Shown: positions 5,735-40,961, numbered from the stretch's first letter. The stretch: DNA of 43,740 nucleotides from a virus (IMGVR_UViG_3300024988_000005); one strand, 5' to 3'. The notes: a model not told the origin generated them from the letters alone. Numbers and translations: made by a program.

Positions 5735-8700
5735 GCGGTGATGCCCCGGCCGGTGAGCGCAAGCTGATCCAGCGCCTGCCGCGTGCTGGCGGCGGCCATG
5801 GTCTTGTTCGTGTTCGCCGTGCTGCTGCTGCTGCCTTCGATGGCAGCAAGCCGCTGGTCGATGCTCTTGAGCAGCGCCAGCTGTTCGGCGCTGGACGTGT
5901 TGTTGTTGGCCGAGACGCCGGTGGCCGTGGTGATCGGGGCGCCGGTGATGGTGGCGATCAGGTCGCGGCCCAGCTTCTGGATCGCATCGACGATGCTGCC
6001 GCTGGCGTCGAGCACGCTGCCGGGCACGTCCTGCAGCTTCAGGCTGTCGAGGTAGCCGGCGATGTTCGTGATGCCGAGGTCTTTGGCGAGGTCGCCGAGG
6101 TTGAAGCCGAGCCCCTTGGCCGCTTCGTTGTAGTCGATGCCGTGCGTGGTGCTGATGTCCGCCACGTACTGCGCCAGCGTCTTCGCATCGGCGAAGCGCG
6201 CCGTGGCGTTGGCCTGCGCCTGCAGCTGGTCGCGCTGGCCAGCGAGGTCGGCATACTGCTTGATGGCGTCCTGCACGCTCAGTTGGCCGCCTGTGCCGGA
6301 CAGGCCAAGGATGTCCTGCACCTTGTTGTACAGGCCGGTGTAGTCCGCGCTGCTGGCGTAGAGCTGGCGGCCCAGGCCCAGCACATCGTCGGCGCTGGTG
6401 AGGCCACTGCGCAGGCCCTGCAGGGCGAGGTCCAGCTTTTCCTTGCCGCTCAGCGGCGACTTGTCGCCGATGGCGAGCTGCAGCGCGCTCTGGGTCTTGG
6501 ACTGCATCGCATCGAGCTGCGCCTGTACCGCCTGCAGGCTGGTGCCGGTGACGTTGTAGAGCTTCGCGGCGAGGTCTTGCGCGGCGCTGCTGAGTTGGGC
6601 GATCGCGTCGGCCGCCTGCTTGGCGGCGAACTGGTGGATGTTCACCAGGTCCTGCTCCGCCGCGCCCTGCATGCCCGCCGCGCGCGCCAGGTCGTTCGCC
6701 TGGTCGATGTTCGCCTGCATCTGCTTGGCGATGGCCTCCAACGAGGCGCCAAAGCCGGTGCTGACCGGTGCGAACTGGCCGACGAACTGCACATAGGCCT
6801 GGCTGGCCTGCATCAGCCGGTTGTAGGTATCCGCCAGCTTTTCGCCATCGGCCTGCAGGCTCTGGGTAAACGCGATTACCTGCGCCAGCGTTGCCTGACT
6901 TCCCAGCGCCACGAGGCTATTGCCATGCAGGATGTCCTGCTGGGCAGCCAGCATGGCGGCGACGCCATCGGCCAACGTATCCACGTTCGACTGCCACTGC
7001 TTGGCGATCTTGTTGGCCACATCGCCAGCGCTGGCCGCGATCACCGACAGAAGCGCCTCGGCGCCGATGCGCTGCGCGGCGGCATCAGCCGTGGCTTCCT
7101 TCCACGTCTGGCCAAGGTAATTGACCATGTAGGTCGTGGCTTTGCTCTTGACGTCGTAGTGCGACTGCAGCGATGCCGAGATCATCTCAGGCACGGCAAC
7201 GCCAAGCTTCTGCGCACCCTGAACCAGCACCTTCTCAACGCTGTCGTACAGCGCGTTAGCGGCGTCGATCATGTCCTGCGTCGGCGCCACCTGTTCGCTT
7301 CGGTGCTTGGTGCCGCCGAACAGCGCCTTCTTGCCGCTCTCGTACACGGTGCTGCTGGCGCTCGCGCCGCCCGCGCCGATCTGCAGGAAGGTATCCGAGC
7401 CAGTTGGCTTGTACCCGGTGCCGAACAGGCCGCCGCCGGTGAGCGCGTCAATGGCTCCAAGCGCGGCGAGGCTCCAACCCGCTACAGGAATCCAGCTGGC
7501 GCCCGCGGCTGCGCCGAACGCGCCACCTGCCGCCGTTCCGAGCGATGCACCACCAGCCACACCGGCCGCCGTACCAGCCAGCCCAGCGCCTAGCGCGCCG
7601 TATCCAGCAGCGCCGAAGAGACCACCGATGCCGCCGCCGGCATGGTTGTACCCGTAATAGGCACCAAGCAGGCCGCCGCCAGCGCTGGCCCACGGCGCCG
7701 CGTAGCCGCCAAGGCCGAAGGATCCACCCAGTGGCGAGTAGCCGCCAGGCACCATGATGCCATTGCTTCCGGCATAAGCGATCTGTCCGTTCGGCAGGTT
7801 GATGCCGAGCGCGTTGCTGCCAGCCTGTGCGGACAGCGAGGACGTTCCGGCGCCGCCCCACAGGCCGCCGGTGCTAGCCCACTGGTAGGCCTTGTATCCC
7901 TGTAGGCCTTGCTGCACGAAGCCCATATAGCCTTGCGAACCGCCGCCACCCGCATTGCCACCGACCGCGCCAGCCGTCGTGCCGATCGTGCCGCCGTTGC
8001 CGTAGTAGTTGGATGACAGCGACAGGCTGCTTCCAGCAAGGCTGCCAGTGACGCCGAGCCAGCCAGCGATGGAGCCCATGGCTCCGGACAGCAATGGGCC
8101 GAGTATCCGCAGGCGCACGAACTGGCTGATCAGGTCGCTCACGAACTGCCGCGCGATCGACTTCAGAGACTTGCCGAAATCCTTCCAGCTCTTCGTCTGG
8201 CCGGTGATCAGGTCGCCAAACGCCTTGCTGATGCTGCCGGCGGCGTTCTCCCAGAAACCGGCATATTCCTGCGCGATCTGGCGCTGCTCATCGGCCATTT
8301 GCTTCATGTCGAACGAAGCTCCGGCCGCAGCTTCCACGCGCTGCTTCTCCGCTTCCAACTGATCCCTAGTCAGCTTCAGGTTCTGGGTGCGGGCATCCTG
8401 TTCATACTCCAGACCTGCCCGTGCAATCGCCTGGTCGCGATCGCTCAACGTTGATAGCCAGGCTTCCTGTTGCAATTGCTCGATCAGTCGACCGGATACG
8501 TCCAACTGGCGCTTGATCTTCGTGTACTCATCATCGCGAGCAGCGCTCGCCGCGGTGATGCCTTCGGCAACGAGCTTCTGCGCGGATGCCTCGACCGCCG
8601 CGGCATCGGCCACGCTCATATGGCCTTTTTTCACCGCGTCCTGGGCCTTGGTGATTTCGTCGCCGGCCTTCTTCGCCAGATCGCGGATGCTGTCGATGTA

Positions 8701-10158
8701 GGCAGCATCGGCCTTGTCGTATGGCGATCCGGCTTCCCCCTTCAGCTTATCGACCATATTGGCCAGGCTGGTCAGGTCGGGGAGCGCCGCCTTGGCGGCC
8801 TCACGCATCTTGCCGATACGTGCGGCCCAATCGGTTCCGGGATTGATATCTCCTTGGAAGAGGCCGAGCTTATGGGCGCCAGCCGTCACCTGGTCCGCGA
8901 GCGCCTTGGTTTGCGCATCCACCGCGGCATTGGCCTTGGCCAGTTCGCTGGGGAACATCTTGTCGGTGAACGTCTTCAGCTCGGACCACAGATCCTTGAT
9001 GTCGCCCACGAATAGCCCGGTGTTCGACTTCATGCGGGCAAAGCCCGACGCTGTATTGGACGCCATGGTGTCGAAGGCCGTGGACCAGGTATCCACGACG
9101 CCTTTCACGTCGAAATGCAGGCTCTGGGCCATCGCGGTTTTCGCCGCGGTGAAGAAAGCCGTGGTGTTCTTGTTGATCGTGGTGAGGCCGGCGGCGAGAT
9201 ATTCCACTGCAGCCGCCACGGCGGTGGCGATCGCCTTAACCGCCACCACCACGGCATCGATGGCCACGGCCAGGCCCTTCATGGCATTCGCCAACACCGT
9301 GGCGATGCCGTTCATTCGATCGGCCTGCTCATTCGCGTCGCCCATGCCGGAGCCGACATCCAGCAACGATGGGAGCAGCTCCTTCAGGAACGTGTTGGCG
9401 GCGCCTGCGGCCAGATTCTTCATGCGTGCCAGGCGGTCGTTCAGTTCGGTGGCCTGCGCCGCCGTGTTCTGATCGATCATCAGGCCAAGCTTTTCGGCCT
9501 CGGCGGCCATGGCCGCCAGACCTTCCTTGCCCTGGTTGAGCATGGGTATCAGCTTGGCGCCTTCGCTTCCGAACAGCTTCACCGCCAGGGCGGCTTTGTT
9601 TGGTCCGTCCTGCACGCGGCGGAAGCGGTCGGCCAAGTCCGGCAGCATGTCAGCCAGCGATCGCAGATTGCCGCTGGCATCCTTCACCGGAACGTTCAGC
9701 GCAGCGAATGCTGCGGCGTATTGCTTCTGGCCGGCGGCAGCCTTGGTTTGGCTGTCCGCCAGCGCCTGCAGGCTGGTGTCCAACACCTGCAGATCGGCGC
9801 CGCTGGACTTCGCGGCATAGCCCATCGAACTGATGAACTCGGTGCTCACGCCGAAGCGCTGCGCCATCTTCCCAGTGGAGTCGGCGACATCCAGCTGGCG
9901 CTTCACCAATGCGGCGAATCCCGCAACCGTGGCGCCAACCGCCAGGCCGATGGCCTTCCCGGCACTGACCGCCGATTTCTCCGCGTCCTTCGCGGCGCTA
10001 TCGATGGCTTTGCCGGCGCCCTTGGCCTTGTCGCTGACCACATCGAAGGATCCACCGAGATCCTTCATCTGCTGCTTGATCACCGCCACCGTGCCTGTCA
10101 GGCCCTTGGCGTCGCCGGTCAGAACAATGGTGATTTCTCGGCGCTTCGAGTCAGCCAT
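5731..10158 (-). CDS. Tail tape measure protein (1475 aa)
   Basis: Very long Ala/Gln/Leu-rich helical ORF with an internal Gly-rich segment, located downstream of the tail tube and chaperone genes. Confidence 0.85.
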   Translation of the reverse strand: MADSKRREITIVLTGDAKGLTGTVAVIKQQMKDLGGSFDVVSDKAKGAGKAIDSAAKDAEKSAVSAGKAIGLAVGATVAGFAALVKRQLDVADSTGKMAQRFGVSTEFISSMGYAAKSSGADLQVLDTSLQALADSQTKAAAGQKQYAAAFAALNVPVKDASGNLRSLADMLPDLADRFRRVQDGPNKAALAVKLFGSEGAKLIPMLNQGKEGLAAMAAEAEKLGLMIDQNTAAQATELNDRLARMKNLAAGAANTFLKELLPSLLDVGSGMGDANEQADRMNGIATVLANAMKGLAVAIDAVVVAVKAIATAVAAAVEYLAAGLTTINKNTTAFFTAAKTAMAQSLHFDVKGVVDTWSTAFDTMASNTASGFARMKSNTGLFVGDIKDLWSELKTFTDKMFPSELAKANAAVDAQTKALADQVTAGAHKLGLFQGDINPGTDWAARIGKMREAAKAALPDLTSLANMVDKLKGEAGSPYDKADAAYIDSIRDLAKKAGDEITKAQDAVKKGHMSVADAAAVEASAQKLVAEGITAASAARDDEYTKIKRQLDVSGRLIEQLQQEAWLSTLSDRDQAIARAGLEYEQDARTQNLKLTRDQLEAEKQRVEAAAGASFDMKQMADEQRQIAQEYAGFWENAAGSISKAFGDLITGQTKSWKDFGKSLKSIARQFVSDLISQFVRLRILGPLLSGAMGSIAGWLGVTGSLAGSSLSLSSNYYGNGGTIGTTAGAVGGNAGGGGSQGYMGFVQQGLQGYKAYQWASTGGLWGGAGTSSLSAQAGSNALGINLPNGQIAYAGSNGIMVPGGYSPLGGSFGLGGYAAPWASAGGGLLGAYYGYNHAGGGIGGLFGAAGYGALGAGLAGTAAGVAGGASLGTAAGGAFGAAAGASWIPVAGWSLAALGAIDALTGGGLFGTGYKPTGSDTFLQIGAGGASASSTVYESGKKALFGGTKHRSEQVAPTQDMIDAANALYDSVEKVLVQGAQKLGVAVPEMISASLQSHYDVKSKATTYMVNYLGQTWKEATADAAAQRIGAEALLSVIAASAGDVANKIAKQWQSNVDTLADGVAAMLAAQQDILHGNSLVALGSQATLAQVIAFTQSLQADGEKLADTYNRLMQASQAYVQFVGQFAPVSTGFGASLEAIAKQMQANIDQANDLARAAGMQGAAEQDLVNIHQFAAKQAADAIAQLSSAAQDLAAKLYNVTGTSLQAVQAQLDAMQSKTQSALQLAIGDKSPLSGKEKLDLALQGLRSGLTSADDVLGLGRQLYASSADYTGLYNKVQDILGLSGTGGQLSVQDAIKQYADLAGQRDQLQAQANATARFADAKTLAQYVADISTTHGIDYNEAAKGLGFNLGDLAKDLGITNIAGYLDSLKLQDVPGSVLDASGSIVDAIQKLGRDLIATITGAPITTATGVSANNNTSSAEQLALLKSIDQRLAAIEGSSSSTANTNKTMAAASTRQALDQLALTGRGITA

Positions 10159-10441: not shown

Positions 10442-10715
10442 GGTGGATTTCCTCGTTGTCGTTGAAGTAGCCCCTGTTGAGGGGGCGGCCGGGTACTTCA
10501 ACACCGCAACGAGACGGCCCGCAGTTTTCCCCCGTCACCGGGGTCTTGTATGGCTGCGCGCTACCCGACCATGGGGGAACCATAGTCGCAAAAAATCCGC
10601 GATGACGCTCGCGGATGACGCTCGTTGTCAGTGTGTTGAGCACCTTGAGGCGGAGCCTACTGCCGGCATATGTCTGTGGTCAACTGCGTCATTGTATTGC
10701 GCTAATGTATTTCCC

Positions 10716-21226: not shown

Positions 21227-22798
21227 CTATGCCGCGTGCGCGAGGAGCTTCTCGCGGCTGTGGCTCGTGGAAAGGATGATGGTGGGCGCGTGCGCGGTGC
21301 CGCGCGTGGCCAGCCCCCATACCGCGGCCATGGCGGCGTCGAAGCCGTCGTCGCCCAGTTTCGGGTTGGCCATCTTGTAGCTGCTATAGCTGGTCTTCGT
21401 GGGCTTGGCCACGATGTTCGGCAACTGCCGGGCGAACGCGCGCAGGTCGGCGGTTTCGCGGCAGGCCATGTCCTGGTCGTCGAAGTACGGCAGCACCGCG
21501 GCGTCGTTGTGGAACACCGTGCGCAGCGCGTGCGCCATCTGGTGCTTGGTCATGCCCTCGAAGCGCATCGGGCTGAACGCCCACTCCGGCCAGGTGCTGG
21601 CGGTGCTCTCGCCGTCGCCAATGGCGCGGCGGTCGATGTCGGTCAGGCCCTCGCGGAACAGCTCGTCGTTCAGCGCGGTGAGCATACCCACGCCGAAGGC
21701 GTCGCCGATGGCGTAGTCCGGGCGGAAGTACCGCCAGAACGCCACCAGGTCCTTCTGCACCTCCGGCTCACCGGTACCGGCCGGCCAGAACTTCACGAAC
21801 GGGAAGAAGATGAAGTTGCCGATCTGCTCGGCCACCACCAGCGCATGCTTCGAGCTGGCCGGGTTCTCGCCGTGGCCGGCGGCGTCGTAGCCGAAGCTGA
21901 GCACGCCGCGGCGCGGGTACTTCGCGCCGGGGAACGGCTCGGCCAGCTCCAGCCCGCTGCGCAGGCCAAGCTGCATGGCCGCGCGCACCTTGTTCTCCCA
22001 GATCAGGTTGCGGCTGCTGATGTTCTTGCACAGCAGCTGGCGGATGTATTCGTCGGGATCCAGCTCGGCCCGCATCTGCTCCATGAACTTGGCGTTGAGG
22101 ATGCCCAGCTCGATGCCAAGGTGCACGTCCACCGTGGGCAGCACGTGGTACTGCTCGCCGGCGATCATCTCGCTCAGCGTGTCGGCGCCCTTGAACACGC
22201 CGGTGATGCGGATCTCCGGCGTGTTCTCGCTGTCGGTGCTGGCGCCAAGGCGGCGCGTGGAGCCCATCATCAGCAGGAAGCGACCGTACAGCCGGTCGCG
22301 CGGCATGTCGTCCACCTCTTCCAGGCTGGCCATGGTGAGGTCGCCGCCGTCGACGTTCGCCATGATGCCGTAGGCACGCGCCATCGATCGGTTGGCGTAC
22401 TGGAAGTAGGTGTCGGCCATCTGCTGGCGGCCGCTGCGGTAGTTCAGCCAGGCGGTGAGGATGGGGCTGCGGCGGATCGCATCCAGGTGATAGTTCAGGT
22501 TCACCAGCGACTGCGCCTCACGCGGCGCCACGATGCCAAGCTCCTGGTCCGCCTTGGTGGCCAGCTTCATGTTGTTGTACATCTCCTTCACCGCCGTCTT
22601 TCCAGTGCGGCGGCTGCTGAAGTCGATGGTGTTGGGGTGCCGGTCCATCTCGATGCACTTGAGCACCTGCATCGGGTCCAGCGTCACGTTGTGCACGTGC
22701 TTGTGCCACAGCGCATGGTCATGGGCGTAACGCATCACCTCGCGCTCGGCCACGCTTTGCAACCGGTAGCGCTCGGCGCGGGAGATCCGCTCAGCCAT
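21227..22798 (-). CDS. terL: Terminase large subunit (523 aa)
   Basis: Walker A-like SSRRTGKT, Walker B-like LTMASLEEVDD, and a C-terminal nuclease-like acidic motif (GYDAAG, IGDAFG). Confidence 0.8.
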   Translation of the reverse strand: MAERISRAERYRLQSVAEREVMRYAHDHALWHKHVHNVTLDPMQVLKCIEMDRHPNTIDFSSRRTGKTAVKEMYNNMKLATKADQELGIVAPREAQSLVNLNYHLDAIRRSPILTAWLNYRSGRQQMADTYFQYANRSMARAYGIMANVDGGDLTMASLEEVDDMPRDRLYGRFLLMMGSTRRLGASTDSENTPEIRITGVFKGADTLSEMIAGEQYHVLPTVDVHLGIELGILNAKFMEQMRAELDPDEYIRQLLCKNISSRNLIWENKVRAAMQLGLRSGLELAEPFPGAKYPRRGVLSFGYDAAGHGENPASSKHALVVAEQIGNFIFFPFVKFWPAGTGEPEVQKDLVAFWRYFRPDYAIGDAFGVGMLTALNDELFREGLTDIDRRAIGDGESTASTWPEWAFSPMRFEGMTKHQMAHALRTVFHNDAAVLPYFDDQDMACRETADLRAFARQLPNIVAKPTKTSYSSYKMANPKLGDDGFDAAMAAVWGLATRGTAHAPTIILSTSHSREKLLAHAA

Positions 22799-23756
22799 TT
22801 TCGCCAGCCTGCTGCTTGTGCTCGATCAGCACCGGGTCGCGCACGGTGTTCTCGCGGCTGCGGGCGATCAGGTTGCTGAGGTCTTCCAGCGCCAGCGTGG
22901 TGCGCTTCTGGTACTCCAGCTGGCTCTCCTGCCGCTGCTGCTGGCCGGCCAGGTAGCCCACGGCATCCTCGGTGGCCTCCTTCGCCTTCGGCGTCATGCC
23001 CATGTCGCTCAGCGACAGGCCGATCTTCGCCACCCACTCGCCGATGCGCTTCAGCATCGGGTGCTCGGTCAGCACCATAATGGTTTCGCGCTCATGCGGA
23101 AGCAGCTTTCCGCTGTCATCGTCGCGACCACCTATCTGAGCCACATGGAAGCCGCCATCCTTGTCGTAGTACCAGGCTGGCGTCCTGATCGTGCTGCCGT
23201 CGCGGATCACGTCCAGGATCATCAGGTTGACGATGCTGCGCAGGTTGGCGTGCAGGTCCGCGTTCAGGTCGTTCAGCAGCTTCGGGTCGCCGGCGGTGAA
23301 CGCCAGATGGTGGGCGAAGTACAGGTCGACGCGCTTCTGGCAAGCCGTGGCGGTGAAGCAGCTGCTGAAGTATTCGCAGCCATCGCAGTCCGGGTATTTG
23401 CCCGGCCGCGCCGGCCAGTACGTGGCGGTGCGGGCGTTCAGCCCGTGCTTCAGGCCGTTGAAGCGCGTGCGTCGAGCCTCTTCCGGGGTGGGGTGGCCTT
23501 CCAGGTTCTTCGCCGTGCTGGCCAGCCCCTCGGCGGTCTTCGGCCCGGTGGCGTGTGCCCAGGCCTTCAGCAGGCCGCGCTGCTGGCGTTCCTGCTCGCA
23601 CTCCCGGCCACACTCGGGGCAGGTGCCCACGTAGCGCCAAGGATGCCATTCGTCTTCCGGCGCATCCTCCACGCGGACGGGCTTGGCCTCGAAGCGGTAG
23701 TCGCAGTCGAGGCAGTGGAACCGGACATCATCGAGGCGTGGCCGCAGCTTTCCCAT
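22791..23756 (-). CDS. Cys-rich protein in the small-terminase position (321 aa)
   Basis: N-terminal zinc-ribbon pairs (CLDCDY...CPECGREC). Overlaps the terL start by 8 nt. Assigned by position only. Confidence 0.3.
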   Translation of the reverse strand: MGKLRPRLDDVRFHCLDCDYRFEAKPVRVEDAPEDEWHPWRYVGTCPECGRECEQERQQRGLLKAWAHATGPKTAEGLASTAKNLEGHPTPEEARRTRFNGLKHGLNARTATYWPARPGKYPDCDGCEYFSSCFTATACQKRVDLYFAHHLAFTAGDPKLLNDLNADLHANLRSIVNLMILDVIRDGSTIRTPAWYYDKDGGFHVAQIGGRDDDSGKLLPHERETIMVLTEHPMLKRIGEWVAKIGLSLSDMGMTPKAKEATEDAVGYLAGQQQRQESQLEYQKRTTLALEDLSNLIARSRENTVRDPVLIEHKQQAGENG

Positions 23757-25122
23757 GCTGCATGACCGTGTGCGGGCTGGCGCCGCGGGTCAACGGGAAA
23801 GCGTGCGGGTGGTGTTCCAGCCGCGGGGCGAACCGGCGGCGCCGGGTGGCCGAATGCAGCCACGGGAACCTCTGGTGCAATGACTGCCGCAGCCGGAAGC
23901 TGCTGGCATGGCGCAGGTGGCCGGCATAGCTGGCCAGCGTGGACTGGACGCACCGAAGTTCGGCCGGCGTAGCCCGGATGAAACCGGCGCCGACGTGCCG
24001 TTGCTCCCAGCTAGCCAACGCCGATCGCAGGTGGACGGCAACGCGGCGGCGAACCAGCGTATGGGTGGGCCGCACCACGTAGCCGAGGAAGTCGATGCCA
24101 TCGGCCAGCGGGCGCAGGCGGATGTCGTCCTTCAGCACCAGGTGCAGCTCGCGCTGAAGGAAGTCGGCGATCCTGCGCTGCCAGTCGGCCAGCACCGCAC
24201 GGTCGTGGTGGACCAGCACGAAGTCGTCGACGTAGCGCACGTACCGCTTCGCGCGCAGGACGTGCTTCACGAACTGGTCCAGGCGATCGAGGTAGATGTT
24301 GGCGAACAGCTGCGAGCTGAGGTTGCCGATCGGCAGCCCGCAGCCCGGGGCAGCGTTGGCCAACCGTTTGTGTGCCGGCACCAGGGCGAACTCCGCTGGT
24401 GTGCCGCGCATCTTCACCCCGGCGGCCAGCGGCGGCCGGCGCAGCAGTGCATGGGTGGCGCGCTGCATGGGCAGCGGCACTGCATGCCGTTCCAGCACCG
24501 GCTTCAGGATGCGCCACAGCGTGGGCCGGTGGATCGAGTTGAAGAAGTTGCGGATATCGAGCTGCAGGTAGTAGCCGCCGCCCTGGCCGCTGTGCACCTG
24601 GCGGACGAACTGCTGCACGCGCCGCACGGCCGCATGGCTGCCCTTGCCGCGGCGGTTGGCATAGCTGTCGGCGATGAACCGCGGCTCCCAGATGGTTTCC
24701 AGGCGCGGAACCAGCCAGTGGTGTACCACGCGGTCGGCGAAGTCCGGCGCGTGGATCTCGCGCGCCTTGGGCCGCGTGGCCACGAAGCACACGCTGGGCC
24801 GTGGCCGCCACGTGCCGGCCTGCAACTCGCGCTGCAGCTGCAGCAGACCATCCGTCCAGCGGGCATCGAACGCGAGCTGGTTGCGGCTCGGCTGCTTTCC
24901 CCGGCGCGCCATGCGCCAGGCGTCATGGAGCGCGCGAAGCGAAACTGCCCCGGCGCCCGCCCCCTGATACTCACCGGCCGACACGACACGCACCGCCCGC
25001 ACGCAGGCCTTGTTGTTGCGGTCGTTGTTGTTGGCATTGCCGTTGTTGAAGTTGACGATCCACGCGCAGGACGGCGCCCACGCTTCCCCGCGAACTTGCG
25101 ACCTGGGCGAACAGTCCGGCAT
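23728..25122 (-). CDS. DGR reverse transcriptase (ORF as tracked is 464 aa; true start uncertain, possibly ATG at 24912)
   Basis: RT motifs: PKAREIHAPDFADRVVHH, ANRRGKGSHAA, LDIRNFFNSI, GLPIGNLSSQLFANIYL (the DGR-type IGxxxSQ) and RYVDDFVL (YxDD). The TR lies in the 5' extension of the ORF. Confidence 0.85.
   Translation of the reverse strand: MPDCSPRSQVRGEAWAPSCAWIVNFNNGNANNNDRNNKACVRAVRVVSAGEYQGAGAGAVSLRALHDAWRMARRGKQPSRNQLAFDARWTDGLLQLQRELQAGTWRPRPSVCFVATRPKAREIHAPDFADRVVHHWLVPRLETIWEPRFIADSYANRRGKGSHAAVRRVQQFVRQVHSGQGGGYYLQLDIRNFFNSIHRPTLWRILKPVLERHAVPLPMQRATHALLRRPPLAAGVKMRGTPAEFALVPAHKRLANAAPGCGLPIGNLSSQLFANIYLDRLDQFVKHVLRAKRYVRYVDDFVLVHHDRAVLADWQRRIADFLQRELHLVLKDDIRLRPLADGIDFLGYVVRPTHTLVRRRVAVHLRSALASWEQRHVGAGFIRATPAELRCVQSTLASYAGHLRHASSFRLRQSLHQRFPWLHSATRRRRFAPRLEHHPHAFPLTRGASPHTVMQHGKAAATPR
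23764..23806 (-). promoter_or_regulatory. Conserved late promoter-like element, copy D (upstream of packaging genes, inside the 3' end of the RT ORF)
   Basis: Minus strand reads GCACGCTTTCCCGTTGACC-N15-CACACGGTC. The ATG of the 321-aa gene begins 7 nt later. Confidence 0.55.
24973..25083 (-). repeat. DGR template repeat (TR)
   Basis: About 111 nt homologous to VR1 and VR2. The coding strand is AAC/A-rich (translates NFNNGNANNNDRNN). All mismatches to the VRs fall at TR adenines. Confidence 0.85.
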
Positions 25123-25140
25123 TGGAGTTGCGCGCCTTCG

Positions 25141-25578
25141 TCATGGATTGGCCCCTGCGAAAGAGGCGTCGCGGGTACTCAGTATCTGGGCACGCTCCGG
25201 CGAGGCATCGCACGCCGGATTCTGGCCCTTGGGGACTTGCAGTTGCCGCCACCAGCCGCCGGCCTGGCGGCCGAGATCCTCGGCCAACCGGATCAGCATC
25301 TCGAACTGGCGGAAGCTGGTGAACGCCCGGAGCTGGCTACCCATCTGCAGGCTCAGCTTGATCTCGTCGATCGCCCAGCGCAGCTGGTCGACCCAATGGG
25401 CCTGCCGCGGCCGGTCCCGCCATGCCCGGTGACACACGCGCACCACCGTCATGGCCTGCTGCCGCAGGTCCGTGCCGAGGGTGTACTTGTGATATCGGGC
25501 GAAGCCCCGAACCGCCTGCTCGATCTCGCGGAGCAGGCGTTCGGCGGTTCTCACGATGGGTGGCAGCGGATGGTTCAT
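25141..25578 (-). CDS. avd: Accessory variability determinant (Avd-like four-helix-bundle protein, 145 aa)
   Basis: Lies between the target genes and TR/RT, as in the Bordetella phage BPP-1 layout. Helical and basic, with an FARYHKYTLG...LRQQA motif typical of the Avd / 23S-IVS protein family. Confidence 0.7.
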   Translation of the reverse strand: MNHPLPPIVRTAERLLREIEQAVRGFARYHKYTLGTDLRQQAMTVVRVCHRAWRDRPRQAHWVDQLRWAIDEIKLSLQMGSQLRAFTSFRQFEMLIRLAEDLGRQAGGWWRQLQVPKGQNPACDASPERAQILSTRDASFAGANP

Positions 25579-25596
25579 GGGTTCAAAGAGGCAGAG

Positions 25597-25983
25597 TTAC
25601 TGACCGGCCGACACGACACGCACCGCCCGCACGCAGGCCTTGTAGTTGCGGCCGCCGCTGGAGGCACTGCCGCCGCTGAAGCTGACGATCCACGCGCAGG
25701 ACGGCGCCCACGCGCTATCCGTGCTGGTCCAGTACCAGTCGTTCTGGGTATCGGGGAATGCCTCCACGTCGATCGCCGGGCGGATGCGCGAGCGGTCGGC
25801 CAGCAGGAACAGCTCCTCGACGGTAGGCATCCGCCAATCCTTGTGCCCCGCCACATCGAGCTTCTTCGCCGCGGCGATGGCCTGCTTGTGGGTCTTGCCC
25901 GTGGCGACGGTGGCCTTGGTCCACATCAGGCCGGTCAGGGTATCGGTTACGGTGCCGTCGCCGTTGTCGGTGAATCGCTTCAT
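25597..25983 (-). CDS. DGR target protein 1, DUF1566 / C-type-lectin-fold (128 aa)
   Basis: TGLMW..., DWRMPTVEEL, WYWTST and ...ACVRAVRVV are DUF1566 hallmarks. AGGAGCACACC SD precedes the ATG at 25983. The C-terminus is VR1. Confidence 0.8.
   Translation of the reverse strand: MKRFTDNGDGTVTDTLTGLMWTKATVATGKTHKQAIAAAKKLDVAGHKDWRMPTVEELFLLADRSRIRPAIDVEAFPDTQNDWYWTSTDSAWAPSCAWIVSFSGGSASSGGRNYKACVRAVRVVSAGQ
25603..25713 (-). repeat. DGR variable repeat VR1
   Basis: Collinear with the TR (offset 630 nt). By manual alignment there are 12 substitutions, all opposite TR adenines. Confidence 0.85.
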
Positions 25984-26015
25984 GGTGTGCTCCTGGTAGA
26001 GATCAAAGAGGCCAA

Positions 26016-26444
26016 TTACTGACCGGCCGACACGACACGCACCGCCCGCACGCAGGCCTTGCCGTAGCGGTCGTTGTGGCCGGCATCGCCGCGGTCGAAG
26101 GAGACGATCCACGCGCAGGACGGCGCCCACGAACACGGCGTGCTGGTCCAGTACCAGTCGCTCTTCGTGTCGGGGAACCGCACGGTGTCGATGGCCGGGT
26201 TGTGGCGTGTGAGGTCGAGGATCGATTCCAGCTCCATGCGCGTCGGCAGGCGCCAGCCTTCGCCGAGCGCGGCGCAAGCCTTTTCGGCGGCGGCGTAGTC
26301 CACGGACTTGCCATCACAGAGGGTGGCGCTCCATTCCAGCTTCGGAGGGAGCAGCGGCGCGGGCGCGGACACGGTGATGCCAGCGGCCGGGCTATCGATG
26401 CCGATGTCGACGGTTCCTTCGGGATGGATTTTCAGGGTGAGCAT
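26016..26444 (-). CDS. DGR target protein 2, DUF1566 / C-type-lectin-fold (142 aa)
   Basis: GWRLPTRMELE, WYWTST and ...ACVRAVRVVSAGQ. AGGAGAACCCC SD. The C-terminus is VR2. Paralogue of target 1. Confidence 0.8.
   Translation of the reverse strand: MLTLKIHPEGTVDIGIDSPAAGITVSAPAPLLPPKLEWSATLCDGKSVDYAAAEKACAALGEGWRLPTRMELESILDLTRHNPAIDTVRFPDTKSDWYWTSTPCSWAPSCAWIVSFDRGDAGHNDRYGKACVRAVRVVSAGQ
26022..26131 (-). repeat. DGR variable repeat VR2
   Basis: Collinear with the TR (offset 1049 nt). By manual alignment there are 12 substitutions, all opposite TR adenines and at a different set of positions and bases from VR1. Confidence 0.85.
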
Positions 26445-27276: not shown

Positions 27277-30027
27277 CTACTCGTTGGCGGCGCGGGCCCA
27301 CTCCGGCATCTGCGTGCCGGTGGGCTCGTCGGGTTGGCTGATGTACAGGCCGTACTCGGCCAGCTTGCGCAGGCTGAGGGCGGTGAGGTGGGCGTGGCGG
27401 CGATGGCCGATGCGGCGGTCGAGCTCGTCCTTCTCGATCACGCCGGCGTGGTCCAACTGGCGCTTGAAGATGCGGCCGCTCTTCACCGGCAGGCCGTTCC
27501 ACATATCGCGCAGGCGGTTGGTGGTGCTGATGTGATCCATCACATGCTGCGGGCGCAGGATGATCACTTCCTCGCCGCTGTCGAGCACGTCAAAGGCGTA
27601 CGGGTGCAGGAACTGGTGGCTCTCGATCTCGCTGAAGGCGGTTTCGAGGATCCACACCCATGGCTCGCGGTCGCCGCTGGTCTCGGCGATGTGCTTGTTC
27701 ATCTCGGCGCGTAGGTCGCGCAGGAAGTCGCCGGTCTCGCGGGCCATGCCGGCGAACTCGCACAGCAGCGCCCAGGCCAGGGCGATGGAGCCGTAGTTGC
27801 GCACCATGCGGCTGGCGCCGGTGTCGCCGGGTCGCGCGCGGCAGCCGTCCCAGCACCACTGCTCCCATTCGGCCAGGCGCGACTGCACCTGCTCGCGGGT
27901 CAGGCTGGCGAGGAACTGCAGCCACTGCCGCACCGGGAAGCGCGGGATGCCTTCCGGCATCAGCGGGCCCTTGCGGCCGGTGAGGTCGGCGCGGATCACC
28001 TTGCCGGTGAGGCTGCGCACCGGCACGTCCTCGCCGGCCAGCAGCACCGGCGCGCTGATCAGGAACTCGGTGAGGTCGCTGCCGCGGCGGGTCAGGGTGA
28101 ACTGGTAGCTTTCCTGCAGCATCGCCACGGCCACGTTGATCACGTCCTGCCGGCGGGCCGAGATTTCCTCCCAGCCCACCGGGTGGCTGGTGTGGCACGC
28201 GCTGGTGAGCAGGCGGAACTCGGTCTGCAGGCTCTGGCCGCCGAACATCGTCATGCCGATGCTGCGTTCCAGGCGCTTGATCAGGGTGCTCTTGCCGCTG
28301 CCCTTGTCGGCCTGCACGATCATGTGCGGCCAGAAGCCGAGGAAGGCCTTCAGGTGGCCTCCCAGCGACCAGGTGAGCAACTGGGCGGCGGCGTTCTCGC
28401 GGAAGGTGGCCTGGTAGGCCTCGATCACGCGCCGGGCGTCGCGGGCCTGCCCGCTGGGGAAGCTGAGCGCGCTGTACGGGCACTGCTTCTCCGGCTCGGT
28501 GAAGTAGCAGTCCGGCCCCTCGTTCACCACTGGCTTGCCCTGGCGCCAGGCGAGGCCCACGAAGTTCAGCGCATCGCGGGCGCCGCACTCGGCGCTGCGC
28601 TCCAGCACGGTGATCATGCGGGCGAAGCGGTTGGGGTTGAACACCGGGCCGAACTTCTTCCAGTAGTCGATGTTGTACAGGCGCTCGTCGTTGAGCACGC
28701 GGCGCATCAGCTGGGCGCCGTGGCGCGCCGTCTGCACGCTCACCGCGAACACGGTGTTGGGCTGGGCGTCTTCCTCGCCGCTCATGGTGGCGGTGGCGCT
28801 CTGGATGGTCACGCGGCTCAGCGAGGCCACGCGGAAGCCGGCCAGGTCGTCGATCACCGGCAGGTCTTCGCCGCCATCCTCGTTCTTCTCCAGCTTGCTG
28901 ACGAAGCTGGTGAAGTCGAGCTTGGCGCGGAACCGCCAGTACACGGCAAAGTCGTGGCCGGGCAGGTAGACGCGCTGGATGCCCTTCGGGCCGTCGCGAC
29001 CGGCCAGGCCGGGTATCACCCAGGGTTCATGGGTTTCCAGCATGGTGCGCAGCTGGTCCAGGCCGGCGCGTTCGGCGATGTCGGCCGCGTCGTTGTAGCC
29101 CAGCTCGTACCATTCCTTCTGGTCCACCATGATCGCGCCGATGTTCAGCGCGGTCAGCGCGTCGTACAGCGCCCAGGCCGCCTTCGCGCCCGGGCGCACG
29201 CCCTTGTCGTCGGGCTCGTCGGCGTCCATGCAGATCACCACCTGCTTGCCGACCAGGAAGCGCCAGTCGATGTTGCTGGCGTTGCCGGTGCCGCGCAGCG
29301 CGATCGCCGCGCTCATCTTCAGGCCGCAGGATTCGGTGACCAGCGCGTTGATGGCGCTCTCGAAGATGTACACGCGGCGGGCGCGCTGCACGTGCTGGCG
29401 GTCCACGAACCAGGGCTGGCCATCCTTCTGGCCCAGGCTCTTGGTCTTCACCCCGCCGTTGAGCGAAGGGTCCAGGTAGCGGAAGTCCACCGCCTGCACC
29501 TGCATGTTCGCGTAGTCGCGGCACACGAATGCCACCGCCGGGCCACCATGGCCCACCACGCCCTCGGCGATGCTGTTGCTGGTCCAGGTGTTGAAGCCCA
29601 CCGCGCCGCGCTTGAGCGCCCACTCCACGGTTTCCTGCTTCACGCCGCGCTTAACCAGGTATGGCACGGCTAGCTGCGCCTGCACCTTGCACTGGTCAGC
29701 CAGGTATTCCTCGCGGCTGCGCTCGGGGCGCGGCTGGGTGTTGTCCGGCTTGTCGAAGGGGATGCTGTAGAGCTCATGCAGCCGGCGCATGGCGTCCGGC
29801 ACGTTGTCGATTTCCTCCACGAAGCGGACCAGGCTGATGCAGTCGCCGCCGTTCTCGCTGCTGAAATCCTTCCAGGCCTTGCCCGCGTCGAAGATCGAGA
29901 TGCTGGGGTTCTTGTCCGCGTGGTGCGGGCTCTTGTAATTGCCGGTTCCGCCCGGCCGTTCCAGGCCGAGTTTCTCAGCCAGATCGTGCAGGTCGATCCG
30001 CTGTTTGAGTTCGCGTATGGATGCCAT
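27277..30027 (-). CDS. Bifunctional DNA primase / P-loop helicase-like replication protein (916 aa)
   Basis: N-terminal primase-finger-like segment (KSPHHADKNPSISIF...GGDCISLV). Toprim motifs (IFESAINAL; ICMDADEPD). Walker A (DKGSGKST) in the C-terminal half. Confidence 0.7.
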   Translation of the reverse strand: MASIRELKQRIDLHDLAEKLGLERPGGTGNYKSPHHADKNPSISIFDAGKAWKDFSSENGGDCISLVRFVEEIDNVPDAMRRLHELYSIPFDKPDNTQPRPERSREEYLADQCKVQAQLAVPYLVKRGVKQETVEWALKRGAVGFNTWTSNSIAEGVVGHGGPAVAFVCRDYANMQVQAVDFRYLDPSLNGGVKTKSLGQKDGQPWFVDRQHVQRARRVYIFESAINALVTESCGLKMSAAIALRGTGNASNIDWRFLVGKQVVICMDADEPDDKGVRPGAKAAWALYDALTALNIGAIMVDQKEWYELGYNDAADIAERAGLDQLRTMLETHEPWVIPGLAGRDGPKGIQRVYLPGHDFAVYWRFRAKLDFTSFVSKLEKNEDGGEDLPVIDDLAGFRVASLSRVTIQSATATMSGEEDAQPNTVFAVSVQTARHGAQLMRRVLNDERLYNIDYWKKFGPVFNPNRFARMITVLERSAECGARDALNFVGLAWRQGKPVVNEGPDCYFTEPEKQCPYSALSFPSGQARDARRVIEAYQATFRENAAAQLLTWSLGGHLKAFLGFWPHMIVQADKGSGKSTLIKRLERSIGMTMFGGQSLQTEFRLLTSACHTSHPVGWEEISARRQDVINVAVAMLQESYQFTLTRRGSDLTEFLISAPVLLAGEDVPVRSLTGKVIRADLTGRKGPLMPEGIPRFPVRQWLQFLASLTREQVQSRLAEWEQWCWDGCRARPGDTGASRMVRNYGSIALAWALLCEFAGMARETGDFLRDLRAEMNKHIAETSGDREPWVWILETAFSEIESHQFLHPYAFDVLDSGEEVIILRPQHVMDHISTTNRLRDMWNGLPVKSGRIFKRQLDHAGVIEKDELDRRIGHRRHAHLTALSLRKLAEYGLYISQPDEPTGTQMPEWARAANE

Positions 30028-33294: not shown

Positions 33295-33557
33295 GCGGCA
33301 CCGCCTACACGTGCGACGGCCATCACCACGCGATCGCGCATGGCATTGCGCGGATCATCGATGCGGAACTCGACGTGCTGCAGGAGCTGCTCCGTAGCCT
33401 CGGTCAGCTCGTCCACGGCGGTGGCCACGTCACGCACGGATTGAGCGCGCTTTTCCATGAGGATCGCGAACTCAGAGTTGGTGCAGCCATCGGCGATGCC
33501 CTGCAAGCCATCGGCGATTTGCGACAGCACCGCCTTGACGTCGATGCACCCGCTCAT
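33291..33557 (-). CDS. Hypothetical helical protein (88 aa)
   Basis: ATGA overlap with the recombinase stop. Confidence 0.5.
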   Translation of the reverse strand: MSGCIDVKAVLSQIADGLQGIADGCTNSEFAILMEKRAQSVRDVATAVDELTEATEQLLQHVEFRIDDPRNAMRDRVVMAVARVGGAA

Positions 33558-34171
33558 CGCGCCAGCTCCAGCGCATCCTCGACCGTCTCGCGGTCGGGCA
33601 GCGTGTAGATCACCGTGCTCTCGCGGCTGCGCTGGCCCAGCACCACCTGCACGATGCCCTGCGGGTCGCGCGCCTCGCTGCGAGCCATTACGCGCTTGGC
33701 CAGGGTATGGCGCAGCCAGTGCGGGCTGGCAGACACCTGAAGGCCGGCCTCGGCCACCCACATGGCCATGCGCGCCTGGTAGCTGCGCACGGACATGCCA
33801 CGGTGGTTGCGGCTCATTACCAGCGGCTGGTCGGGGTGGGCGCCATAGCCCATGTCGGCGCGGATCTTCACCAGGGCTTTCAGGCTGGCCATGGCGCGGG
33901 TATTCAGCGGCACTTCGTAGCCGCGGCGGCCCTTGGCGTGCTCGTCGACCAGGTGCAGACGCTTGCGGCGCAGCGCGGCCTGGGCATGGCCCAGCGTGAC
34001 GCCGGCCATGCTGCCAATGCGGATGCCGGTCTGCCGCAGCAGATCCATCCATTCCGCGTCGCGGCGCGCCAGCACGTCGGCGAACTGCCGCACGTGCTTC
34101 ATCAGCTGCTTTTCTTCTGCCTCGGTGAGGTAGCGCTCGAACACGGCGCGCTGGGTGATGGCGTTCAGCAT
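33554..34171 (-). CDS. Mini tyrosine recombinase, catalytic domain only (205 aa)
   Basis: TGIRIGS (Arg I), HWLRHT (H-x-x-R) and ...STVIYT (Tyr) in the correct order. GGAGGTGGCGAA precedes the ATG at 34171. Confidence 0.65.
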   Translation of the reverse strand: MLNAITQRAVFERYLTEAEEKQLMKHVRQFADVLARRDAEWMDLLRQTGIRIGSMAGVTLGHAQAALRRKRLHLVDEHAKGRRGYEVPLNTRAMASLKALVKIRADMGYGAHPDQPLVMSRNHRGMSVRSYQARMAMWVAEAGLQVSASPHWLRHTLAKRVMARSEARDPQGIVQVVLGQRSRESTVIYTLPDRETVEDALELAR

Positions 34172-34590
34172 TTCGCCACCTCCGCGCCGGCTGCGTTGAG
34201 CAACTGGGTGCGCTGCCACTGGCGGGCCTCGCACAGCGCGGCGACCAGCAGGCTGGCCGTGCCGATGTGCACGCGCAGGTGGGCGGCACCGCTGATGATC
34301 CACAACAGGCTGTCGGTGACCAGGTTGCCGCGGTCACGCAGCTCCTGCAGGTTGATCTGCAGTTCCTCGCCGCTGTCCAGGTGCAGCGGCGGACGCACGC
34401 GATCGCCGCCGTCTGACAACGTCATGACGCGGGCGATCTCCTCGATCACCTGGTCGCGGTCGACGTTCTCCACCTGCCACACGAACGGGCCGGTGCTGAT
34501 GCACGTCATCGGCTGGCCCGGGTGCACGATCACCTCGATGTTGCCGTCGACGCTGTCGATCTGGCGCAGGAACAGTTCTTCGATGCTCAC
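34165..34590 (-). CDS. Hypothetical protein (141 aa, GTG start)
   Basis: GTGA overlap with the upstream stop. Confidence 0.45.
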   Translation of the reverse strand: MSIEELFLRQIDSVDGNIEVIVHPGQPMTCISTGPFVWQVENVDRDQVIEEIARVMTLSDGGDRVRPPLHLDSGEELQINLQELRDRGNLVTDSLLWIISGAAHLRVHIGTASLLVAALCEARQWQRTQLLNAAGAEVAKC

Positions 34591-37501: not shown

Positions 37502-39163
37502 TCAATGCGCCCGCACCTCCCGCGGACATCCACGAACCAGCGCCAGCTCGCTAGGCAGCGGAACCCGGATTGCCATGGTGCGCAGTAAGCCAAGCTCGGG
37601 GCGCCATTTCCGCTTACTGCGCACCACCTCTTTCGGTGGTGCCAGCAAGCGATTCGGGTTGTAGCTGACTAGCAGCTCTTCCCCGTCCAGCGTGATGCTG
37701 TCGACGAAGCTGTTATAGAACGATCGGGTCCGCGCCGCGTTCTGATCATCCTTGACCAGGTTGTGCAGGAATCCCGTGAGCTCGTCGATTTCGACGCTGG
37801 TCATGCTGCTGGCCGGCGGCCGCTCGGCATCGATGGCCGCCAGGGCCGCCTCGGCATCCTTCTGCTTCGCATTGTTCTGGCGCAGCCTGGTGGTCATGTC
37901 GCCCAGGTTGGGGGCATCCTTTCCGTAGAGCTCCAACACCGAATAGAGCTTGTCGTTGGCCTCCTGCAGGCGGCCGATGGTGGCCAGCACCGCGGCACGC
38001 CGCTTGCGATGTTCGGCAGCCCAATTTCCGGCCTCGGCCTCCATCAGCTCAACGATGCTGGCGACGTTTCGGCGCGACAGCACGCGCTTCAGGATGACGT
38101 TCGACAGCCAGTCGTCGACCAGGTCAGCCCGGATGCGGCGCGGATCGCACTCCCGGTTCTGCATCGATCGTCGGCAGCGGTAGTAGAAGTACAGCTTTCC
38201 GCCGCGGCCGCGGCTGGTCTCGATCTGCATGCTGGAGCCGCATTTCCCGCAGCGCAGGATGCCCGTGAATGCATGGGTAGACTTCGGCGAGCCGTCGGCC
38301 TTGGTGATGTCCGCGGCTTCATCCATCAGGGCCTGCACCTGGTCCCACAGCGGCCGCTCGATGATGGCTTCATGGCTGGGCACCACGATCCAGTTGTTTC
38401 GGTCGCGCACACCGCGTGAGTTCCTTCCGCGGCGGCCGAAGACAATGTTCCCGATCATGACCTCATTGCGCAGTTCGTTGATCACGGTCTGCTTTGACCA
38501 TTTGGCACCGCGGCGCAGGATGCCGCGGCTGTTGAGCCAGGCGGCTATCTGGAAGGCGCCCTGGCCGTGGGCGCGCATGGCGAAGATCTCGCGCACCAGG
38601 TCGACCTCTGCCGGCACTGGCACCAGCTTGCGACGCTTCGGATTGTCCGGCGCGGGCAGCGATATATAGCCGAATGGTGCACGGCCGCCAACCCAGTAGC
38701 CCAGCCTGGCATTGCGCATCATTGATCGGCGTGTATCGGCGCTGATCCTGCGGCTCTGCAGTTCATTGAAGATCTCCATCACGCCATCCATCGCCCAGCC
38801 CATGTCGGTGGCGCGGTCGATCGGCGACGAGATGTAGACCAGTTGCACGCCCGCGTCGTCCAGCAGGCGCTTGTTCACCATGGCCTCGTATTTGTTGCGG
38901 GCGAAGCGGGCTGAATCCCAGCAGATGAAGTAGGTGGCCTCCATCGCGCAGGCCATGTCGATCGCGGCATCAAAGGCTGGCCGGTTCTTTTCCCGCCAGG
39001 CGCTCTTTGCATCGTCGGTGAACACGCGCAGCACGCGCGCGCCGAGCTCCGCGGCGCGACGCTCGCCGACCTCGATCTGGGTGGGTATGGAGACGTCCTG
39101 CTCCGATTGCTTGCGGTCGCTGACGCGGGCGTAGTTGACGCTGGTGATCTCTTTTTCGGCCAT
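37502..39163 (-). CDS. Large serine recombinase (553 aa)
   Basis: The N-terminal resolvase catalytic motif is YARVSDRKQ. Followed by a recombinase domain (GRAPFGY), a Cys4 zinc ribbon (CGKCGS...YYRC) and a coiled coil. Confidence 0.8.
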   Translation of the reverse strand: MAEKEITSVNYARVSDRKQSEQDVSIPTQIEVGERRAAELGARVLRVFTDDAKSAWREKNRPAFDAAIDMACAMEATYFICWDSARFARNKYEAMVNKRLLDDAGVQLVYISSPIDRATDMGWAMDGVMEIFNELQSRRISADTRRSMMRNARLGYWVGGRAPFGYISLPAPDNPKRRKLVPVPAEVDLVREIFAMRAHGQGAFQIAAWLNSRGILRRGAKWSKQTVINELRNEVMIGNIVFGRRGRNSRGVRDRNNWIVVPSHEAIIERPLWDQVQALMDEAADITKADGSPKSTHAFTGILRCGKCGSSMQIETSRGRGGKLYFYYRCRRSMQNRECDPRRIRADLVDDWLSNVILKRVLSRRNVASIVELMEAEAGNWAAEHRKRRAAVLATIGRLQEANDKLYSVLELYGKDAPNLGDMTTRLRQNNAKQKDAEAALAAIDAERPPASSMTSVEIDELTGFLHNLVKDDQNAARTRSFYNSFVDSITLDGEELLVSYNPNRLLAPPKEVVRSKRKWRPELGLLRTMAIRVPLPSELALVRGCPREVRAH

Positions 39164-39857: not shown

Positions 39858-40961
39858 TCATTTATCAGGCCCAGTATGGGTGCGAGGAACGCGTGGATGG
39901 CGCTCTGCGGCGTCGATGCGGCGCAGATCCTCCAGCACCGGCGTTCGCAGCTTGCCCAGCGGGTTGGCCTTGTCGACGGTGCGTCGCAGCTTGCGCATCG
40001 CCAGGTGTGCGTAGATCTCCGTACTCTTCGGATCGTTATGCCCCATCAGTGCCTGGTTGGCGAAGAGGCTGGCGTCTTCCTCAGCCAGCTCGGTGCCATA
40101 GAGGTGTCGCAGCGCGTGCGGGTTGAGCTGGTCTGCTGGGATCTTCGCGGCAGCGCCATGCTTGGCCAGCAGGTCACGCACGGCATATTCGCTGATGCGC
40201 CGCGCCTCGCCGCGGTAATCGCACGCCGGCACCATGTGATTGGCCACCGTCACGAACAGCACGCGATCGCCATCCTCCAGCGTCCGGTCGATCTCGGCCA
40301 GCTCGGGGTGGCCAAGGTAGGCACGCAACAGCAGCGCCACCTCGCGTGGCGCCGGCATGTGGCGCTCCTTCGAGCCCTTCTCCACGACGCGGATCACCAG
40401 ATCCTCTCGGCCTTCGAACTCGGTCCAGATCATCGCCGACTCGTTCAGCGCGCAAATGCCGCTGATGCGCAGGCCGAGGCCCATCAGCACGGCCATGATG
40501 GCTGTATCGCGCAGGCCGAGAAACGTGGCCAGGTCGGGCTGGCGTAGCAGCAAGTCGGCATTGCTCAGCGTGATCGCTCGCGGCAACGGGCGCCCCGCCT
40601 TCGGATAGGGCAGGTGCTCAGCGACGTTCACCGGCAGCTTGCCCTGCGCATGCGCCCAGGCATAGAAGCCGCGCACGGCCGACACAAATACGCGGCGCGA
40701 GCGCGCGCCGATGCCCTGGCTGTGGCACACCATGCCGCTGAAGCGCTCCAGATCCGCCAGGGTCATGGCCAGCAGGTCAGACGTGCCGCAGCGCAGATGT
40801 TCGGCAGGCGGCGGCTCGATGCACCACTTCGCCAGGCGTTCAAGGACTGACTGGTACAGGTCGATCGTCTTCGGCGAACGGCCCTTGTTGAACTGCAGCC
40901 AGATCAGCCAATCGTTCACCAGGGCGTTGTAATGGTCGAGCTCGGCGGGGGGGACAGGCAT
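39858..40961 (-). CDS. int: Tyrosine integrase / XerC-D-like recombinase (367 aa)
   Basis: N-terminal SAM-like core-binding region. Catalytic GLRISG, HALRHLYGT and LMGHNDPKSTEIYAHL in order. Adjacent to a repeat-rich non-coding region. Confidence 0.8.
   Translation of the reverse strand: MPVPPAELDHYNALVNDWLIWLQFNKGRSPKTIDLYQSVLERLAKWCIEPPPAEHLRCGTSDLLAMTLADLERFSGMVCHSQGIGARSRRVFVSAVRGFYAWAHAQGKLPVNVAEHLPYPKAGRPLPRAITLSNADLLLRQPDLATFLGLRDTAIMAVLMGLGLRISGICALNESAMIWTEFEGREDLVIRVVEKGSKERHMPAPREVALLLRAYLGHPELAEIDRTLEDGDRVLFVTVANHMVPACDYRGEARRISEYAVRDLLAKHGAAAKIPADQLNPHALRHLYGTELAEEDASLFANQALMGHNDPKSTEIYAHLAMRKLRRTVDKANPLGKLRTPVLEDLRRIDAAERHPRVPRTHTGPDK

Follow-up and report, generated by a model that had tools for sequence, protein, structure and literature searches.

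The 43,740-nucleotide (nt) stretch of viral DNA IMGVR_UViG_3300024988_000005, referred to at its full length as the window, very probably carries a structurally complete diversity-generating retroelement (DGR) residing in a Rhodanobacter prophage. On the minus strand its parts follow one another as target2, target1, avd, a template repeat (TR), and a reverse transcriptase (RT) gene, and each target gene ends in a variable repeat (VR). An earlier note, made from the sequence, had proposed a complete DGR with one TR, two VRs, avd, and a DGR-type RT. Each of these parts passed an independent test, and the span the note gave, 23728–26444, runs exactly from the stop codon of the RT to the start of target2.

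The relationship among the three repeats carries the finding. The TR, VR1, and VR2 were aligned without gaps on the minus strand. The TR (25083–24973), the invariant template, is 111 nt long and contains 22 adenines, while VR1 (25713–25603) forms the 3′ end of target1 and VR2 (26131–26022) the 3′ end of target2. Each VR has 12 mismatches to the TR, made up of nine A>G, two A>T, and one A>C changes in VR1 and seven A>G, three A>C, and two A>T changes in VR2. All 24 mismatches lie opposite TR adenines and none is found among the 178 non-A positions (89 per VR), with a hypergeometric P of 1.6e-10 per VR for 12 of 12 mismatches falling among 22 of 111 positions. The same three-copy repeat family was recovered by an independent repeat search, and a seed scan of both strands of the whole window found no further VR.

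The earlier note had reached much of this by manual alignment, i.e., three collinear repeats at these coordinates, 22 TR adenines, a TR peptide of NFNNGNANNNDRNN, and 12 mismatches in each VR, every one at a TR adenine. The computed alignment reproduces these exactly, together with the identity claimed for all other bases, the GC-rich 3′ block included (89 of 89 in each VR); mismatches at non-adenine TR positions, which would have spoken against a DGR, were looked for and are absent. The note took the pattern as the signature of adenine-specific mutagenic retrohoming, which is supported both by the adenine-only changes in the two VRs and by the TR-to-VR flow seen in sister cassettes. The 22 TR adenines all occupy codon positions 1 or 2, in nine AAY codons plus ATC, GAC, and AAG, and therefore all 17 changed codons are non-synonymous, as are all 12 mismatches in either VR. 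The theoretical repertoire is 4^22 (1.8e13) DNA sequences, or ~8e12 peptide variants per target.

Sister cassettes with 88% nucleotide identity to the window cassette are found in the IMG/VR contigs L001 and L002, whose phages also appear as L082 and L083. Their homology to the window extends exactly from the target2 start codon (26444) to position 23882 inside the 3′ end of the RT gene, and their flanks, which are unrelated to those of the window, encode Mu-type transposition proteins. Across the three cassettes the TR is identical at 110 of 111 positions, with identity at 91% for avd and 80% for the RT. The sole TR difference is a T in the window and a C in L001 and L002, and in each element the respective base is copied in both VRs. 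The presence of this TR polymorphism in both VRs of each element means that TR-to-VR copying took place after the lineages split; information has flowed from TR to VR in this lineage on an evolutionary time scale. L001 and L002 are themselves nearly identical (438/438 in avd and 1255/1257 in the RT). They differ at 42 sites in 5.3 kb, of which 32 are adenine-templated positions of VR1 or VR2 and none is a non-A position of a VR. These differences, taken with the TR/VR pattern of the sisters, indicate that mutagenic homing was recently active in this cassette lineage. Another six of the 42 substitutions are clustered 11–78 nt upstream of VR1 in target1 (L001 6930–6997), outside the TR homology, possibly through selection on neighboring residues or conversion from the paralogue.

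The cassette also belongs to a wider family. With the RT as query, a scan covering one genome per species gave 76 loci, ~45 of which share the target–avd–TR–RT layout with one to four VRs, most having two or more. These loci come mostly from the Xanthomonadales (Lysobacter, Stenotrophomonas, Xanthomonas, Rhodanobacter, Dyella, and Luteimonas), with some from other Gamma- and Betaproteobacteria. Apart from two of the ~45 loci, each has at least ~85% of its mismatches on TR adenines, and in many this share is 100%. Related cassettes occupy early or accessory regions of unrelated temperate phages: the neighbors are MuA/MuB-type transposition genes in L001 (1659–4725), RecT and an integrase in L016 (2186–3109 and 8213–9367), and a DNA methyltransferase in L018 (1966–4071). 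Cassette homology to the window starts exactly at the target2 start codon. The cassette had no match among GenBank phages by megablast.

The RT open reading frame (ORF) lies at 23728–25122 on the minus strand and encodes 464 amino acids as called, with the RT domain beginning at about residue 58 (24951). It matches Pfam RVT_1 (2e-14) and PHROG 1423 (2e-98). Its best solved relative is 8ub7_A (E 2e-35), an entry that the fold search labels the reverse transcriptase from the DGR ribonucleoprotein of the Bordetella phage system, and the best group II intron RT follows at 1e-13. The protein contains IGNLSSQ and YVDD, as the earlier note had reported. The form [I/V/L]GxxxSQ is the signature of DGR RTs and replaces the QGxxxSP of group II and retroviral enzymes (PMC7826257). 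Residues aligned to R74 and I181 of bRT, which promote adenine mutagenesis (PMC7826257), are conserved as well. Judged by its signature motif and its best match in the PDB, the enzyme is an RT of the DGR type.

The avd gene (25141–25578, minus strand) encodes a 145-amino-acid protein modeled as a four-helix bundle over residues 7–114 followed by a disordered tail. The product matches PHROG 3206, "Avd protein of DGR," at 5e-19. In the structural model, residues 7–114 have a predicted local distance difference test score (pLDDT) above 94 and superpose on the Avd chains of 8ub7 and on 4dwl with template modeling (TM) scores of 0.81–0.85 and a root-mean-square deviation of ~2 Å, so the predicted fold is that of Avd. 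Both the model and the PHROG match agree with the Avd-like four-helix protein of the earlier note.

Both target genes encode free-standing C-type-lectin-fold proteins with the VR at the C terminus. Target gene 2 (26016–26444, minus strand; 142 amino acids) has a Lcl_C/DUF1566 domain preceded by an N-terminal extension of ~35 residues, while target gene 1 (25597–25983, minus strand; 128 amino acids) consists of the Lcl_C/DUF1566 domain only. Pfam Lcl_C matches target1 at 2e-31 and target2 at 5e-23, and a protein identical to target2 in Rhodanobacter sp. 68-29 bears a DUF1566 annotation. The AlphaFold model of target1 (pLDDT 94.6) has the Legionella Lcl C-terminal domain as its best PDB match (8q4e_A, E 3e-6), and many C-type-lectin-like proteins rank after it. 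In both genes the VR ends 6 nt ahead of the stop codon (...VVSAGQ*), placing it at the 3′ end of a C-type-lectin-fold ORF. No signal peptide, lipobox, or domain beyond the lectin fold was recognizable in either target when the sequences were read.

The ends of the repeats follow the arrangement expected of a DGR. Identity between TR and VRs extends through a 39-nt GC-rich block ending in GGCCGGT, beyond which the sequence continues with CAGTAA in the VRs and with GAGTAT in the TR. The first difference at a base other than A is a G>C immediately 3′ of this common block, at 24972, 25602, and 26021, and it marks the boundary between a GC-rich initiation of mutagenic homing (IMH) element lying at the VR 3′ end and a nonidentical IMH* at the TR 3′ end. 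The difference of a TR G from a VR C is kept in all three sister cassettes, and the family as a whole conserves the distinction between the TR and VR ends. Where the TR/VR homology stops, directly on its 3′ side, the minus strand has an IMH*-like boundary motif, CGGTGAGTATCAGGG, at 24962–24976; the VRs instead carry GGTCAGTAA here, with its stop codon. The sequence C.GTGAGT..CA directly 3′ of the TR (24976–24965) is invariant in 30 loci whose RTs are 59–75% identical. On the other side of the TR, the 57-nt spacer that separates it from avd (25084–25140, minus strand) holds a conserved block, GGTCGCAAGTTCGCGGGGA, at 25103–25085; lying directly 5′ of the TR, the block is conserved as GGTCGCAAGT.CGCGGGGA in an alignment of 25 related loci. 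The blocks flanking the TR on both sides are candidate DGR RNA elements, and the avd–TR spacer might serve as part of the DGR RNA or as a leader of the RT, by analogy with the avd 3′ requirement of Bordetella phage BPP-1 (bioRxiv 10.1101/2023.10.23.563531).

The start of the RT gene is less conventional. As mechanically called, the ORF includes the TR in frame, with its N-terminal 57 codons traversing the repeat in the frame used by the VRs, and homology to bRT and to all relatives starts only at residue 58–64. The only in-frame starts upstream of this point are the ATG at 25122 and GTGs inside the TR, at 25002, 24993, and 24984, so that TR and RT reading frame overlap. The entire TR can be read in the RT frame without a stop in 41 of 43 related loci, compared with 25 and 1 of the 43 for the other two frames. 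In 31 of the 43 an ATG in the RT frame overlaps the avd stop codon as ATGA, a configuration that suggests translational coupling. The window retains the ancestral ATGA at 25144–25142, overlapping the avd stop, and has acquired a 1-nt insertion relative to L001 and L002 (CTCCAATGCCGG versus CTCCAG-GCTGG) that shifts the ATGA away from the RT frame. The in-frame ATG at 25122 arises from this insertion too, and the frame of the ATGA now terminates at the TGA of the invariant GGTGAGT. With the ATGA displaced, RT translation must start at ATG 25122 or at an internal GTG.

DGRs in which the TR overlaps the annotated RT ORF have been described as a structural class, DiGReF group 3 (PMC3521204), and Wu et al. 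hold that the TR is not translated (PMC5758913). A broader proposal, somewhat unlikely in our judgment, is that in the Xanthomonadales family the TR, lying in both the RT and the VR frame, may be something other than a silent noncoding template, such that the RT would bear an N-terminal copy of the lectin C-terminal segment of the targets. The proposal also has the cassette traveling as a self-contained module among unrelated temperate phages (Mu-like, RecT-type, and primase-type), where it occupies early or accessory regions and diversifies free-standing, signal-less lectin-fold proteins rather than tail fibers, which would point to a role other than classical tropism switching. If this were true, the targets might act as soluble or docking binders in phage–host or phage–phage conflict.

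The mechanism by which the cassette would operate can be outlined largely by analogy with BPP-1. The cassette is probably transcribed as a single unit, target2–target1–avd–TR–RT. A complex of RT and Avd would reverse-transcribe the TR RNA, placing random bases opposite the 22 template adenines, and the resulting cDNA would replace the final ~111 nt of target1 or target2. The GC-rich 3′ block (IMH) common to the repeats, whose last bases are GGCCGGT, would direct this replacement. The outcome would be the recoding of up to 12 codons in the C-terminal hairpin region of two small C-type-lectin-fold proteins. We infer that cDNA synthesis is primed in cis, and the mode of homing, as well as the ligand and function of the targets, is likewise deduced.

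Two explanations would do without a DGR. The two targets are paralogues, 79% identical over the 202 nt just upstream of the VRs, and one could picture paralogous lectin C-terminal segments shaped by gene conversion together with positive selection on surface residues, with no retroelement involved. The adenine-only pattern effectively refutes this explanation, because selection cannot yield differences that fall only opposite the adenines of a third, non-target copy (P ~1e-10 per VR). It also leaves unexplained the location of that third copy between avd and a DGR-type RT and the recurrence of the pattern in ~45 related loci, and the TR does not vary like the VRs among close relatives. We regard it as vanishingly improbable, and we give the same negligible weight to the idea that the RT comes from a group II intron, a retron, or a defense-type (DRT/Abi) system and stands beside the repeats by coincidence. 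What speaks for such an origin is a set of weak matches in NCBIfam, i.e., 92.5 bits against a cut-off of 300 for the group II RT/maturase TIGR04416 and 47 bits against a cut-off of 235 for the retron St85 model NF038233. Every hit to a group II, retron, or DRT model falls well short of the curated cut-off of that model. Rfam found no group II intron or retron RNA in the window and no family of any kind matching the cassette. The closest solved structure is a DGR RT, the motif is IGNLSSQ and not QGxxxSP (PMC7826257), and the gene is adjoined by avd and the TR.

Several observations do weigh against an intact and working DGR. Avd falls below the curated cut-offs of Pfam bAvd (33 bits) and NCBIfam DivGenRetAVD (39 bits). 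No conserved RNA structure comparable to the BPP-1 spacer was found 3′ of the TR, where RNAalifold on the TR 3′ end plus 220 nt in 30 loci returned three trivial pairs without covariation. There is no convincing GC-rich hairpin or terminator after the VRs, with folding z-scores no better than those of shuffled sequences; VR2 has the one hairpin candidate, whose weak 7-bp stem includes G-T pairs, and VR1 has none. A downstream GC-rich inverted repeat is present in only ~34% of DGRs (PMC5758913). The 1-nt insertion, with its loss of the avd-coupled start, could lower RT expression. Finally, no VR variants of the window phage were found among ~53 contigs (by protein clusters at 90% identity).

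The last two points are also what favors a structurally intact DGR that is currently silent, perhaps through loss of the translationally coupled RT start, its adenine-specific pattern recording past homing. The insertion breaks an ATGA-coupled start that is kept in 31 of 43 relatives, and ~52–53 contigs, two independent assemblies among them, encode exactly these target1, target2, Avd, and RT proteins, without VR variants. Target1 forms a singleton cluster at 90% identity. An exact-pattern scan of JGI (Joint Genome Institute) metagenome contigs with an avd-specific 39-mer gave no match, and the same scan with a TR 39-mer found only the two sister phages and a single short contig that is probably chimeric. 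A search for a variant phage through P0128, an Avd variant with 99% identity, found nothing on record. The no-variant result is weak in either direction, since consensus assemblies, probably from one enrichment community, hide minority variants. Against silence stands an intact RT ORF that retains every catalytic motif and has an ATG in frame. In favor of recent activity, none of the 178 non-A VR positions differs despite 12% divergence of the cassette from its sisters, and the private T of the window TR, part of an AAT codon, stands in both VRs, which means that both were rewritten after that lineage-specific change. A silent element is quite unlikely, and a structurally complete DGR remains the reading that we hold with high confidence, even if present-day activity of the window copy is unproven.

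Two further records concern the target genes themselves. Two near-identical target2 variants (P0122 and P0123) were considered as evidence of VR turnover and rejected, as their VR2 is identical and all differences between them lie at residues that are not A-templated. The 2986-nt contig L081 (Ga0066255_1013227) is 99.6% identical to window positions 28259–25788, after which, midway through target1, it continues as sequence that the window lacks. The target1 product that it encodes, P0076, is truncated or chimeric, and L081 is either a chimera of assembly or a variant that has been rearranged.

Contigs of the Rhodanobacter sp. 68-29 metagenome-assembled genome GCA_001899565.1 and one JGI metagenome contig match the window at 100% identity. 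The window is a siphovirus-like prophage of Rhodanobacter. Besides portal and head genes, the prophage carries a tail-fiber-like gene (930–4373), a tape measure gene (5731–10158), a likely terminase large-subunit gene (21227–22798, assigned by position, with no family match), and a DNA primase gene (27277–30027). The DGR lies between the replication and packaging modules, and the tail genes are not adjacent to it. Three recombinase genes, two tyrosine-integrase-like and one for a large serine recombinase, are found in the last quarter of the window (33554–34303, 37502–39163, and 39858–40961 on the minus strand), which suggests stacked mobile elements or the end of the prophage. Within the tail-gene region, ~320 nt upstream of the tape measure gene, there is a match to the Rfam family sRNA-Xcc1 (RF02221) at 10479–10570 on the minus strand, with 68.4 bits against a gathering score of 53 and an E value of 2e-10. 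The flanking phage genes were considered as components of the DGR system and ruled out: none of 78 related loci carries them in a comparison of loci, and for this reason they are not part of the system.

The value of the element lies in its being a clean, well-bounded two-target DGR of the DUF1566 class in a soil or bioreactor Rhodanobacter prophage, with sisters that provide a natural before-and-after record of mutagenic homing. Its identification corrects public annotation, where the genes are labeled "reverse transcriptase," "four helix bundle protein," and "DUF1566/hypothetical." The compact 2.7-kb cassette is suited to testing or engineering, although its practical value is modest. It also raises the questions of what ligand is bound by free-standing phage-borne lectin-fold targets and whether the TR is translated as part of the RT.

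Among known systems, BPP-1 (mtd–avd–TR–brt) offers the closest paradigm, and the match in gene order noted earlier holds. Both elements are arranged as target with VR, avd, TR, and RT, both show adenine-specific differences, and both TRs contain 22 adenines. The BPP-1 RT is the best PDB relative (8ub7_A), sharing [I/V/L]GxxxSQ, YxDD, and the R74 and I181 equivalents, and Avd has the same fold. In each, the VR lies at the C terminus of a C-type-lectin-fold protein and a GC-rich IMH-like block closes its 3′ end. The two systems diverge in other respects. The window has two tandem targets instead of one, and these are free-standing Lcl_C proteins of 128–142 amino acids, not a tail-fiber protein such as Mtd, in a cassette set between replication and packaging modules instead of in the tail module. 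BPP-1 requires a 140-nt noncoding spacer for cis-priming (bioRxiv 10.1101/2023.10.23.563531), whereas the window has no such spacer; RT-homologous coding begins ~20 nt past the TR, and the TR is inside the RT ORF. A clear GC-rich hairpin after the VRs is also missing in the window.

The targets find their counterpart in the Legionella pneumophila DGR, whose LdtA belongs to the same DUF1566/Lcl_C domain class; the Legionella Lcl C-terminal domain is the best structural match of target1. LdtA is a surface lipoprotein with an export signal, whereas the window targets are phage-borne and have no recognizable signal peptide or lipobox. In the survey of Wu et al. (2018), the window targets fall under category d/CLec2 (DUF1566), of which LdtA is an example, and about half of the targets in this category are short proteins with DUF1566 only (PMC5758913). 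Cassettes with two targets account for 13% of DGRs, and eight tandem targets are found in a Stenotrophomonas sp. DGR (PMC5758913). The multi-target DGRs of the Xanthomonadales resemble the window element in their RTs (59–75% identical), layout, tandem small Lcl_C targets, TR in the RT frame, and GTGAGT motif. None of them shares the flanks of the window, and in the window the RT is no longer coupled to avd by an ATGA in its own frame.

A core DGR cassette is reported to have passed between phages in the case of Vibrio phage kappa and V. cholerae HE-09 (DiGReF, PMC3521204). Like that case, the window element is a discrete cassette common to otherwise unrelated phage genomes, and it differs in cassette lineage and host clade. 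The window element is a real but ordinary example of a well-known system and leaves the current understanding of DGRs unchanged. The small signal-less targets, the location away from the tail genes, and the TR in the RT frame all differ from the BPP-1 paradigm, and each is already represented in surveys of these elements.

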